Assembly: GCA_020148085.1 (NCBI GenBank)
Contig: JAHCRD010000001.1
Location: forward strand, 1-31,926
DNA from: Patescibacteria group bacterium
Lineage (GTDB): Bacteria; Patescibacteriota; Minisyncoccia; Minisyncoccales; CG1-02-41-26
Reading direction: 5' to 3'
DNA length: 31,926 bases
Positions 5,218-30,460 of this stretch are shown here, piece by piece. The notes under the pieces were generated by a model. The model was not told where the DNA came from and made no database searches. It was given only the letters and a program-made list of their open reading frames with translations. Every line of letters begins with the position of its first letter. The stretch's first letter is position 1. The translations under genes were made by a program, and so were the position numbers.

Positions 5218-7281
5218 ATGAACCTCATAATAGTTGAGAGCCCTATGAAGGGACGGACAATCGAAAAATTCTTAGGACCAAACTATTTGGTTCGGTCTTC
5301 TTATGGCCATATTAGGGATTTGCCAGCCAAAGAATTAGGGGTTGATATTGAAAAAGATTTTAAGCCAAAATATGTTATTCCTTTTAAAGCAAGGAAAAGA
5401 GTATCTGAACTTAAAAAATATTTGCCCAGAGCTGAGATTGTAATTTTGGGTACCGACTCCGATAGAGAGGGAGAAAGTATTGCCTGGCATTTAACTAAAA
5501 TTTTAAATCTGAACGGAGAAAAACCTTATCAAAGGATTGTTTTTCATGAAATTACGAAGAGGGCCATTGAAGAGGCACTTGAAAATCCCAGAAAGATTGA
5601 CATGAATCTTGTTAATGCCCAGCAGGCAAGAAGAATTTTGGATAGATTGGTTGGTTATAAACTTTCTCCTTTTTTGTGGAAAAAAGTGACCAAGGGGTTG
5701 TCGGCAGGAAGGGTACAATCGGTAGCCGTCAGATTGATCGCGGAAAGAGAGAGAGAAATTGAGAATTTTGTGCCTCAAGAATATTGGGAAATTGCAGCAG
5801 AACTGCAATCACAGATTAACACAGATAAGAAACGGATTAACACAGATAATAAATCATTTTTGGCAAAGTTGGTTAAAAAAGATGGTAAAGCTATTCCAAA
5901 GCTTGGGATAAAAACAAAAGAAGAAGCTGATAAGATTGTCAAAGATTTAAAGGGGGCTGAGTATAAAGTAATAAATATTGAGAGAAAGGAGGTTAAGAGA
6001 AATCCTCTACCTCCATTTACCACCAGCACTTTGCAGCAAGAGGCCTATTCTCGCTTGCGATTTTCAGCAAAGAAAACAATGATGGTTGCCCAAAATCTTT
6101 ATGAGAGAGGATTCACGACCTACCACAGAACCGATTCTTTAAATCTTGCTGAGCAGGCATTGTTTGGGGCTAAAAAATTTATTGAAGAAAATTATGGAAA
6201 AGAATATTGGGCAGGCTTTTTAAGAAGATATAAAGCCAAAGGTAAAGTTCAAGAAGCTCACGAAGCCATAAGACCAACCTATCCAGATAAAACTCCAGAA
6301 GATTTAAAATTGAAAGCCAAATTAGATGATAACCAATCTCGACTTTATAAGCTTATTTGGCGGAGATTTATTGCTTGCCAGATGAGTCAAGCAATCTTTG
6401 ATTCGTCACAAGTTGATATTTCAGCAAAAAATTATACTTTCCGAGCAACCGGACAAATATTAAGATTTGATGGATTCTTAAAGATTTACCCTACTAAATA
6501 TGAGGAAACAGAACTTCCTCTTTTAGAAGAAGGTGAAATTCTAAAGCTTGTCAAACTCCTTTCTTCCCAACACTTTACTCAACCTCTTCCAAGATACAGT
6601 GAAGCTACTTTAATCAAAACTTTGGAAAAAGAAGGAATTGGCCGGCCTTCAACTTATGCTCCAATTTTAGATACCATTCAAAAAAGAAATTATGTCCAAA
6701 AGAACGAACAAAGAAAATTTCAACCAACCGAAATTGGAATTTTAGTCAATGACCTCTTAGTGGAACATTTCCCAAAAATAGTTGATATTAAATTTACTGC
6801 TCATATGGAGGAGGACTTAGATGAAATTGCCCAGGGAAAAGAAAATTGGATAAAAACCTTAGAAGGGTTTTATCAGCCCTTTGAGAAGAATTTAAAAGAG
6901 AAATATCAAAAACTTTCAAAAGAGGATTTGATAGAAAAAACAGAAAAAATTTGTCCAAAATGCTCCTCGCCTTTGGTAATAAGATGGGGACGTTACGGAA
7001 AATTTTATGCTTGCTCGAACTTCCCAAAATGCAAATATACAGAACCTCTTGCCAAGCCGAGCCTTAATATAAAATGCCCAAAATGTAAAAAGGGAGAAAT
7101 AGTTGAAAAAAGAAGTAAAAGGGGTAAATTGTTTTATGGCTGCAATCAATGGCCAGATTGTGATTTTGCTTTATGGGACAAACCCACCGGAGAAACCTGC
7201 AGCAAGTGTGGCTCTCTTTTAGTTGAAAAAAGTAAAAATCAAATAAAGTGCTCGAATAAAGATTGTGGTTTTAAAAAATGA
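5218..7281 (+). CDS. topA: DNA topoisomerase I (type IA) with C-terminal C4 zinc ribbons
   Basis: 'LIIVESP', 'DSDREGESIAWH', 'SAGRVQS', active-site 'TTYHRTDS', 'AHEAIRPT'; C-terminal CPKC...C..FPKC repeats. Confidence 0.97.
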   Translation: MNLIIVESPMKGRTIEKFLGPNYLVRSSYGHIRDLPAKELGVDIEKDFKPKYVIPFKARKRVSELKKYLPRAEIVILGTDSDREGESIAWHLTKILNLNGEKPYQRIVFHEITKRAIEEALENPRKIDMNLVNAQQARRILDRLVGYKLSPFLWKKVTKGLSAGRVQSVAVRLIAEREREIENFVPQEYWEIAAELQSQINTDKKRINTDNKSFLAKLVKKDGKAIPKLGIKTKEEADKIVKDLKGAEYKVINIERKEVKRNPLPPFTTSTLQQEAYSRLRFSAKKTMMVAQNLYERGFTTYHRTDSLNLAEQALFGAKKFIEENYGKEYWAGFLRRYKAKGKVQEAHEAIRPTYPDKTPEDLKLKAKLDDNQSRLYKLIWRRFIACQMSQAIFDSSQVDISAKNYTFRATGQILRFDGFLKIYPTKYEETELPLLEEGEILKLVKLLSSQHFTQPLPRYSEATLIKTLEKEGIGRPSTYAPILDTIQKRNYVQKNEQRKFQPTEIGILVNDLLVEHFPKIVDIKFTAHMEEDLDEIAQGKENWIKTLEGFYQPFEKNLKEKYQKLSKEDLIEKTEKICPKCSSPLVIRWGRYGKFYACSNFPKCKYTEPLAKPSLNIKCPKCKKGEIVEKRSKRGKLFYGCNQWPDCDFALWDKPTGETCSKCGSLLVEKSKNQIKCSNKDCGFKK
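5811..5849 (+). repeat. In-frame repeat insertion in topA (ACAGAT x4; QINTDKKRINTDN)
   Basis: ACAGATTAACACAGATAA (5811-5828) and ACGGATTAACACAGATAA (5832-5849). Confidence 0.85.
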
Positions 7282-29680: not shown

Positions 29681-30460
29681 TTATTTTTCCATCTTTGAAA
29701 ACTCTTCCCTTAAAAAATTAAGATAAAGTTCTGATATTTCTTTTAAGTTTCTTTTCACCTCTTCTGTTATTTTAATCCTCGGTAATATTTTCCAATCCTC
29801 GGAGAGAAAAAGCCGTAAAATCTTAACTGTATCCACACTTATTTCTTCTGCCAATTTCTTTTCTTCCTCGCTTAGTTTTTTGAAACATTTCCAACAAACT
29901 ATCCCTCCCTCTTTTGGTACAAACCAAAAGGTTTCGGGCAAGAGCAATTTCTGGCAGATTGGGCAAGAATGAATCTCAGGCTTGAACCCTAAAATTGAGA
30001 AAAGATTCCAGAGGAAATAGTAATAAATAATTTTCCCTGCCCCGTAGGAAGCCAAAGGCTTTCCTTCGGGGAATTCCCAATTATCTAATCGTCGGAAAGT
30101 TTCGCTTAGTAGATTCCAGATTTCGTCGTCTTTTTCTTCTTTACCAGTAAGAGAATCTAAGACCTCAGCGATTTGATATGTATAATTCAATTTTTGAGGA
30201 CTTTCTCTTAAGTTTCTAAATTTGTCAATTAAAATAGCGTCGGTTAAGGTTTTGTAAGTTTTTCCTTGAATAAATTCAATCTCTGAAAAATAAAAAAGTT
30301 CAGCTCCTGACCTTAATTTTGACTTGATTTTTCTAATTGCTCTTCCTAAGATTTCCAATTTCCCAAAATCTTCAGTCCAAATAGTAAAAAGCTGGTCGGC
30401 CTCCCCCCGACCCTCCTTCTTCAAAAAAATCCCCTGAGTCCGATAGTGAGTAAACGGCAT
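29681..30460 (-). CDS. recO: DNA repair protein RecO
   Basis: 'GEADQLFTIWTEDFGKL...RAIRKIKSKL', C-terminal Zn motif 'CPIC...CWKC'. Confidence 0.93.
   Translation of the reverse strand: MPFTHYRTQGIFLKKEGRGEADQLFTIWTEDFGKLEILGRAIRKIKSKLRSGAELFYFSEIEFIQGKTYKTLTDAILIDKFRNLRESPQKLNYTYQIAEVLDSLTGKEEKDDEIWNLLSETFRRLDNWEFPEGKPLASYGAGKIIYYYFLWNLFSILGFKPEIHSCPICQKLLLPETFWFVPKEGGIVCWKCFKKLSEEEKKLAEEISVDTVKILRLFLSEDWKILPRIKITEEVKRNLKEISELYLNFLREEFSKMEK
30040..30071. repeat. Palindromic in-frame insertion in recO (FPEGKPLASYGAG)
   Basis: CCCCGTAGGAAGCC-AAA-GGCTTTCCTTCGGGG; arms match with one mismatch and one bulge. Confidence 0.8.

Follow-up and report, generated by a model that had tools for sequence, protein, structure and literature searches.

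Short-word arrays and small palindromes inside housekeeping genes of a Patescibacteria bacterium

Why should housekeeping genes of a very small bacterial genome contain short tandem DNA words and palindromes that stay open in the reading frame of the host gene? The question is raised by a 31.9-kb stretch of DNA (the window), one entire contig (JAHCRD010000001.1) of a Patescibacteria group bacterium whose genome, here called G000, comprises 452 kb in 59 contigs with 36% GC and is 84.5% complete. An earlier note on the window, made from its sequence, had described about ten such elements and compared them with the Rickettsia palindromic elements (RPEs). Our analysis makes it probable that they are what survives in frame of a repeat-DNA system found across the lineage of Parcubacteria-type candidate phyla radiation (CPR) bacteria, in which short-word arrays and palindromes are rewritten in place and filtered by selection. 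This system is best read as linked to cassettes of the PF05635 family. If so, essential enzymes of tiny, streamlined CPR genomes hold stretches that are set by a DNA repeat process and not by protein function.

The system consists of word arrays, mostly with a unit of 7 nucleotides (nt) and sometimes with a period of 10 to 12 nt, and of palindromes of about 20 to 36 nt. We infer that the arrays would arise and be rewritten as DNA, through template switching or slippage inside an array together with some copying between loci, and that palindromes would occasionally be inserted, at times into arrays. Selection would retain only versions that preserve the frame, are kept open by stop-free units or point corrections, and fall in sequence-tolerant loops, and the products would be flexible peptides with a 7-residue period, rich in K, N, Q, S, and P. 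A repeat unit that is not a multiple of three and is read in three phases would be rule-breaking, and would be a steady supply of new surface peptide.

Elements within the window

Every element described in the earlier note was confirmed at its position, in frame and free of stop codons. Window positions, strands, and encoded peptides are as follows.

5810 to 5853, plus strand: topA word array; 21-nt unit twice, ACAGAT words at 10/11-nt spacing; peptide INTDKKR/INTDNKS
9358 to 9387, minus strand: PAP2 palindromic insertion; 30 nt, 10 codons; peptide VYPLPKFWWG
14996 to 15022, minus strand: iorA GAGAAC-N-GTTCTC palindrome; peptide IYREQFSAN
17259 to 17324, minus strand: leuS loop 2 heptamer array; (GGGTTTT)x4, a short core, (GGATTTT)x3; amino acids 669-691
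17323 to 17348, minus strand: leuS hairpin adjoining the loop 2 array; 11-bp arms; encodes part of FLQKVWGLFE
18575 to 18617, minus strand: leuS loop 1 word array; four GTTTCGCG-type words at 10/14/11-nt spacing; amino acids 240-257
20303 to 20330, minus strand: tatD AAGCTT-centred palindrome; peptide AASAKASAS
20524 to 20546, minus strand: tatD GAGAAC palindrome; peptide ILRRTVLCK
20791 to 20846, minus strand: tatD heptamer array; GAGTTTT-type units around a core; amino acids 69-87
23772 to 23830, minus strand: rsmI word array with adjoining small palindrome; TTTCGCGT four times at 11/12/11-nt spacing (word cluster 23772-23813); amino acids 191-205
27976 to 28005, minus strand: DUF11-proS intercistronic array; (AATTTTC)x4 on the mRNA strand, beginning at the DUF11 stop codon and ending 3 nt short of the proS start
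30036 to 30071, minus strand: recO palindromic insertion; 36 nt, within a short AATTGGG/GAAAATT heptamer array; peptide within EFPEGKPLASYGAG

The genes topA, relA/spoT, PAP2, leuS, tatD, metG, rsmI, and recO and an iorA-like thiamine pyrophosphate enzyme gene were confirmed by Pfam, as was a class II aminoacyl-tRNA synthetase gene that is here termed proS. Each host gene was compared with its orthologues in as many as 30 representative species from the family and order of G000; G001 and G002 (98% complete) belong to the same genus as G000. The nearest LeuS homologues are 73 to 79% identical and carry the source names Patescibacteria, Parcubacteria, and Nealsonbacteria.

The comparison places the elements in variable or permissive loops, as the earlier note had supposed, and for LeuS this placement is supported by an AlphaFold2 model (87-sequence alignment, mean predicted local distance difference test score, pLDDT, of 78.6). 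Both LeuS arrays are modelled as coil flanked by conserved elements, and pLDDT falls below 50 at amino acids 238-249 in loop 1 and 679-684 in loop 2. Loop 1 is a 13-residue insertion relative to Thermus thermophilus LeuS, and its word array is also present in G008, while G014 has an (AATTTTC)n array in its place. Loop 2 has the same length as the loop of the T. thermophilus enzyme. Its array is common to G000 and G008, in which every unit differs in concert (AAAATCC-type versus AAATCCC-type) at constant total length. The adjoining hairpin is likewise found in both of these array-bearing genomes, and its palindromy is absent in G002, which is without the array. In a LeuS loop of G024, palindromes stand between heptamer runs. 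A further palindrome in leuS, at 18276-18301, is perfect with 13-nt arms; it lies within the conserved motif HYGTGAIM, is not an insertion, and is probably coincidental.

The other in-gene arrays behave similarly. The topA word array is present in G002 and missing from G001, and the TopA loop of other relatives contains heptamer arrays or a palindrome. The rsmI and leuS word clusters each consist of four GTTTCGCG-type words in identical orientation, and 7 of the 12 copies of TTTCGCGT in G000 fall within them; the RsmI loop has heptamer arrays in G002, G003, and G024 and palindromes in G008, G026, G010, and G009. The tatD array takes the place of a loop, GLVKIKxDxEE, that is conserved, free of repeats, and about as long in other families of the order. 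As a side observation on this gene (window 20163-21050), the TatD proteins of G002 and G008 are about 50% identical to that of G000 and form a separate clade, whereas that of G025 is 63% identical; because the closest genomes are less identical than G025, the pattern suggests paralogy or gene exchange.

Among the palindromes, those of PAP2 and recO are clean insertions specific to G000. At the PAP2 site, 10 of 14 orthologues (including G002) read NKK/AG with nothing between, and the other four have different, shorter inserts; the position of the junction can be fixed to within 1 nt. At the recO site, G002 lacks the insert and has 2.5 heptamer units, and G001, G008, and G009 encode a 7-residue-periodic peptide repeat, which in the DNA of G001 and G008 is an 8-unit heptamer array. 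The tatD GAGAAC palindrome, by comparison, lies in a loop equal in length to that of the closest orthologue, G025. The loop with the AAGCTT-centred palindrome is about 7 to 9 residues longer than in most orthologues, and G009 has a related palindrome there; a 19-nt identical copy is found at C14:7861 (C numbers denote contigs of G000 unless another genome label precedes). No second copy of the PAP2, recO, leuS 17323, or leuS 18276 palindromes was found in G000.

At LeuS loops 1 and 2 and at the RsmI, TopA, RecO, and IorA loops, most of the relatives shown differ, carrying an array of another unit, a word array, a palindrome, or nothing, and these loops are therefore hot spots of turnover. The expectation of in-frame insertions with lengths divisible by three is only partly borne out. 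It holds for PAP2 (30 nt) and recO (36 nt), whereas four of the ten in-gene elements (the tatD array, the leuS loop 2 array, the iorA palindrome, and the tatD GAGAAC palindrome) swap loop sequence without net gain in length. Either way, lineage-specific peptides are encoded, as anticipated. Phase variation, in which changes of repeat number switch genes on and off, typically surface or variable ones, was set aside as improbable, since these arrays are hosted by essential enzymes and preserve the frame in every species compared.

These observations bear directly on an origin resembling that of RPEs, in which discrete mobile units transpose into genes and the in-frame copies in loops survive. 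The two clean, lineage-specific insertions fit such an origin. However, no target-site duplication was seen at either of them, the elements measure 20 to 66 nt, far below the size of RPEs, several elements exchange sequence at constant length, and orthologous copies shift their consensus in concert, which is unexpected under re-insertion. We regard this origin as unlikely.

Heptamer arrays and palindromes across the genome and its relatives

The genome was scanned with Tandem Repeats Finder and by an exact-run search, in which a period-7 run was defined as a tandem run with at least 14 matching positions; Markov-3 shuffles served as the null. G000 contains 19 exact runs of period 7, compared with none to three for each of the other periods within 3-12 and about zero in the shuffles. 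A looser scan gave 78 arrays; on a crude map of longest open reading frames (ORFs), 46 of them fall within an ORF, 16 at an ORF edge, and 16 are intergenic. Because this map covers 90% of the DNA, the 32 arrays in the remaining 10% amount to a density per base about fourfold higher outside ORFs, although most arrays lie within them. Further hosts include tsaD and a GT39 glycosyltransferase gene, with four arrays each, as well as murE/murF, miaB, rnhB, gatA, argS, recG, and tsaE. In addition, two type IV pilin-like proteins have leader peptides encoded by heptamer arrays. Period 7 also leads the tandem repeats at the loci of 30 related genomes (34 versus at most 8 for any other period in about 300 kb), and heptamer-type peptides recur at the LeuS loop among 92 Patescibacteria homologues.

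The coding arrays show how frames may be kept open. Their sense strand is A-rich in 35 of 46 cases, and a 7-nt unit read in all three phases gives a peptide with a 7-residue period. For 17 of the 46, the consensus unit (AATTAAA type), if perfect, would give an in-frame stop every 21 nt, and point deviations keep the frame open. Among the long perfect arrays listed (four or five units), every unit is stop-free in any phase. Unit number differs between related genomes, as in the proS spacer array (four versus three) and the recO array (2.5 versus 8).

Between genes, arrays occupy spacers of co-directional genes and provide start codons, stop codons, and N-terminal peptides. The DUF11-proS spacer is wholly taken up by its array, has no Shine-Dalgarno sequence, and is predicted to be unstructured. 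The orthologous spacer of G008 has three perfect units as compared with four in G000; the spacers of G002 and G001 were not located in the sequence stretches examined. An imperfect 33-mer of this spacer recurs identically before gatA on C46. One array family gives near-identical N-termini to unrelated proteins, namely MKNYNSKFKI, MQNYNSKFKI, and MKSEKLQFKI in enolase, another protein, and an Ogt-like protein. This family and the pilin-leader arrays are located as follows.

C25:5742-5801, C38:9742-9797, C9:7695-7748, C55:5139-5163 and C55:5593-5628: arrays with start codons and arrays encoding pilin leaders

As a class, palindromes gave a different result. Those with arms of at least 9 nt number 43 in G000 against 46 expected from the Markov-3 model, and only arms of at least 12 nt are enriched (6 versus 1.8). 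The heptamers therefore exceed expectation (19 versus about 0), whereas the palindrome class, whose counts match the model except for the longest arms, was rejected as a general signal. The GAGAAC-N-GTTCTC palindrome is validated by its dispersal, not by its frequency: this form, GAGAACWGTTCTC, occurs at seven loci in G000, four intergenic and three in genes. The iorA and tatD copies differ solely at the central base, and are therefore read in opposite orientation. Together with the GTTTCGCG-type words shared by leuS and rsmI, this agrees with the suggestion in the earlier note that motifs recur in different genes, one of them in opposite orientations; the 19 period-7 runs and the seven GAGAAC loci likewise place the elements in genome-wide families. 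Two of the intergenic copies are terminator-like, one with a 17-bp stem and flanking A and T runs and the other followed by a T-rich run.

Could all of this be chance low-complexity sequence in AT-rich, unconstrained loops? The 36% GC content of G000, the unremarkable number of palindromes with arms of 9 to 11 nt, and the apparently coincidental leuS palindrome in the YGTGAIM motif would agree with it. The period-7 excess, the identical dispersed copies, and the same phenomenon across 30 relatives do not, and chance is very improbable as a general explanation. It was ruled out for the arrays and the GAGAAC family and is possible for some single palindromes.

The palindromes also carry a species-specific dialect. 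At the iorA site, GAGAAC-A-GTTCTC in G000 corresponds to GGAGGAC-A-GTCCTCC in G002, with both arms changed in a compensatory manner and equal loop length. The form GGAGGACAGTCCTCC occurs at six loci in G002, four in G001, and none in G000 or G008. Two sites are orthologous between G000 and G002 and show the switch, iorA and the pair G000 C28:296 and G002 C4:363. The dialect switch and the identical 33-mer at unlinked spacers imply a transfer of information between loci or a shared trans-acting constraint, for which local slippage alone is insufficient. The identical imperfect 33-mer at two unlinked spacers and the dispersal of the GAGAAC palindrome over seven loci, only two of them orthologous with G002 copies, also count in favour of transposition.

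Alternatively, the arrays and palindromes might be cis-acting signals, binding sites or RNA structures kept by selection where they lie, with the coding sequence simply tolerating them. Candidate binders are a pentameric four-helix-bundle protein, cold-shock-type single-strand binders (one heptamer per protein), and a terminator or nucleoid factor. Consistent with such signals, the compensatory arm changes preserve the iorA hairpin, the dialect is species-specific at orthologous sites, intergenic palindromes give stems resembling terminators, and pairs of inverted arrays have a folding energy of about -23 kcal/mol. Moreover, spacer arrays lie exactly in the interval from stop to start, with no Shine-Dalgarno sequence present, as do the TAACTGA repeats of Beggiatoaceae, and CspB binds heptamer repeats (PMC4679880). 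Word arrays also flank all 12 of the PF05635 genes sampled in relatives. However, one and the same loop holds unrelated words, palindromes, or nothing across relatives, so that no position-specific signal is conserved. In addition, no PF05635 gene is detectable in G000, and the palindromes reach only six or seven copies per genome. Selected signals are a rather doubtful account of the elements.

PF05635 cassettes and candidate mobilising partners

In profile searches of G000, the transposase family Y1_Tnp (PF01797), which includes the REP-associated tyrosine transposases (RAYTs), the reverse transcriptase family RVT_1, and the TnpB zinc ribbon yielded no match above cut-off, and no Y1_Tnp was found in G001, G002, or G008. 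Y1_Tnp homologues are present in 15 of 31 relatives (including G003, G004, G009, G017, G019, G020, G024, G026, and G027), with one to five matches per genome in ORFs of 210 to 295 amino acids that look RAYT-like, and their presence there is a point in favour of transposition. An RPE-like transposon is nevertheless not supported, because no target-site duplication was seen and the searches of G000 yielded neither a RAYT nor a reverse transcriptase or TnpB. Along with the concerted evolution in place and the replacements at constant length, this leaves the transposing micro-elements of the earlier note without support.

The earlier note had also suggested that similar repeats flank small four-helix-bundle genes. 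PF05635 genes were found in 17 of 31 relatives, up to six copies each, including G002 and G008. In 12 of 12 sampled genes, a word array lies upstream and its reverse complement downstream, with periods from 7 to about 11. Shared 8-mers flanking the ORF reached a score of at least 6 for 8 of the 12, compared with 11 of 143 control ORFs (p = 4e-6). The link thus holds in the relatives, and no PF05635 gene was found in G000 itself, which is 84.5% complete.

Several features tie these cassettes to the arrays of G000. The arms of the G007 and G006 cassettes share a grammar with the G000 arrays, with runs of AATGAAA-type words ending in ACAATTCAAAAT. Arms of this type in G000 make up the start codon and N-terminal peptide of enolase, another protein, and the Ogt-like protein, and a NUDIX gene takes both its C-terminus and its stop codon from such an arm. 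Pairs of arms without a gene between them occur at C3:4725-4825 and C6:4783-4889, where they form long hairpins after genes. In G011, (ACAGATA)x4 precedes the ATG of PF05635, the word being that of the topA element. Period-7 arrays were present in housekeeping loci of 11 of 14 genomes with PF05635 and 3 of 15 without it, a small sample of about 10 kb per genome in which kin are not independent.

The surroundings of all 12 cassettes (260 nt on each side) were read, and those of two were interpreted; there, a protein-coding gene and a tRNA gene are the neighbours on opposite sides. The cassettes G002:C4:67396-67713 and G012:C32:2125-2442 apparently occupy one site in two genera, between the tRNA and a gene with similar C-terminal peptides, which judged by sequence is a putative sigma-factor gene. 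The arm words differ, AGTGAGT in G002 and AGTTTAT in G012. The G000 orthologue of the G002 site was not found.

The association raises a stronger version of the link. PF05635 (S23p/Avd-like) cassettes might themselves make, copy, or homogenise the word arrays and mini-palindromes, acting as a rewriter of permissive DNA similar to intervening sequences (IVSs) and reaching loops of essential proteins, gene starts, and spacers. We hold this to be possible but improbable. If true, it would be a previously unrecognised DNA-level generator of new peptide in minimal genomes and would assign a function to a protein family that has been without one for 30 years.

Several points weigh against the lineage-wide repeat system. 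With no PF05635 gene found in G000, the cassette link rests on the relatives. Translation of the arrays is a prediction, and the genome-wide counts depend on the crude ORF map. Simple slippage fails to account for identical imperfect arrays at unlinked loci or for the dialect switch of a dispersed palindrome, and frequent slippage would put essential genes with perfect arrays of four or five units at risk of frameshifts. Public contigs (Logan, two marine-sediment runs) show no indels at the arrays; being contigs, they do not allow length polymorphism within a population to be read. Contigs of the run that is the likely source end on both sides of the leuS heptamer array (window 17019-17630), and heptamer arrays may, judged by these breaks, fragment assemblies of such genomes. 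For anyone who aligns, assembles, or builds phylogenies from CPR genomes, the arrays are a practical trap.

Likeness to known systems and other repeats of the genome

RPEs, as Ogata et al. are said to have described in 2000, reportedly measure about 100 to 150 bp and form homologous families with dozens of copies, in frame in conserved genes and tolerated at protein surfaces. The elements of G000 share with them palindromic repeats in frame inside conserved genes. However, the G000 palindromes measure 20 to 36 nt (all elements, 20 to 66 nt) and have at most seven copies, and several replace sequence rather than add it. The small dispersed repeats (SDRs) of Nostoc punctiforme, reportedly described by Elhai et al. 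in 2008, are said to be hairpins of about 21 to 27 nt, in genes, nested in heptamer arrays, and present in hundreds of copies. The recO insert matches this layout, as do the palindromes between heptamer runs in a LeuS loop of G024, whereas no palindrome of G000 exceeds seven copies; the likeness is one of layout.

Heptamers are the commonest long simple repeats of prokaryotes, and their arrays are reported mainly between genes and as under-represented in coding DNA, where multiples of three are expected (PMC4692102, PMC4679880). The short tandemly repeated repetitive (STRR) sequences of cyanobacteria and the GGGNATC repeats of Xanthomonas and Nostoc are heptanucleotide simple sequence repeats (PMC4692102; Mrazek et al. 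2007 as summarised in PMC4679880). The G000 arrays resemble them in their tandem 7-nt units with many spellings, in a genome-specific excess of period 7, and in favouring short spacers of co-directional genes, often overlapping the stop codon. They differ in their A/T-rich units and in being found for the most part within the ORFs of essential enzymes. Similarly, the TAACTGA direct repeats of marine Beggiatoaceae, cyanobacteria, and Bacteroidetes (PMC4679880) form heptamer arrays just upstream of start codons, replace the Shine-Dalgarno sequence, and are translatable in the 'reverse' orientation. They consist of a single dominant word and are nearly all intergenic, whereas G000 has dozens of words and rewritten loops of conserved proteins. 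No paper linking CPR bacteria with heptamer repeats was found in the literature.

The closest parallel to the cassettes is the 23S rRNA IVS of Coxiella burnetii, in which tandem GACAGAT heptamers (three, with the number varying by strain) directly precede the S23p start (PMC4990558). In both cases, a small four-helix-bundle ORF sits in the loop of an inverted-repeat stem. IVSs of this type are inserted in 23S rRNA and excised by RNase III. However, the cassettes of relatives whose surroundings were interpreted are placed between protein-coding genes or beside a tRNA gene and not in 23S rRNA, and what G000 shows is limited to solo arms, arm pairs with no gene between them, and in-frame arrays. 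The PF05635 link and the palindrome dialect give handles on the dominance of heptamers among long bacterial repeats and on the role of the S23p/IVS protein.

Repetitive extragenic palindromic (REP) sequences and their doublets (REPINs) are short dispersed palindromes associated with RAYT transposases, often at gene ends (PMC3116915). The GAGAAC palindrome is likewise dispersed with a species-specific consensus, but no RAYT was found in G000, G001, G002, or G008, no doublet organisation was seen, and copies lie inside genes. In Borgs, tandem repeats within ORFs have unit lengths that are all divisible by three (PMC9879509). Both systems turn A-rich tandem DNA repeats into new, probably disordered peptide, with repeats at the same places in homologous proteins. 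The G000 unit of 7 nt, by contrast, is read in all three phases and yields a 7-residue period; as it is not a multiple of three, identity with Borg repeats was rejected.

G000 also contains other repeat families. A GC-rich repeat of about 150 to 200 nt occurs at seven or more loci, often at contig ends, and resembles a structured RNA or a mobile element; its conserved blocks are GGGGTCGGGAGAACCGCAGG, CCGTGTAGGAAAACAG, GTTAGAAACCGTGGGTTTCTAA, and a CTGCCGAAGGCAG hairpin. A G-rich block, CGAGGGTAGTTTCCGAGGGGAGCATGGAGGGTGGG, has four copies, three of them preceded by TACGAAT-type heptamer words. An Rfam search of the larger GC-rich repeat families and the G-rich block matched only tmRNA.

C55:12400-12650, C34:1-60 and 2580-2700, C22:6600-7400, C9:5400-7100, C8:9540-9674, C39:1-110: GC-rich repeat family
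C6:6120-6260, C7:5690-5830, C7:9450-9600, C47:7840-7990: G-rich block

A repeat of about 60 nt that ends in the CTGCCGAAGGCAG hairpin has four copies (C5:3780-3920, C18:2520-2600, and C23:4050-4130), two of which stand in tandem on C5.

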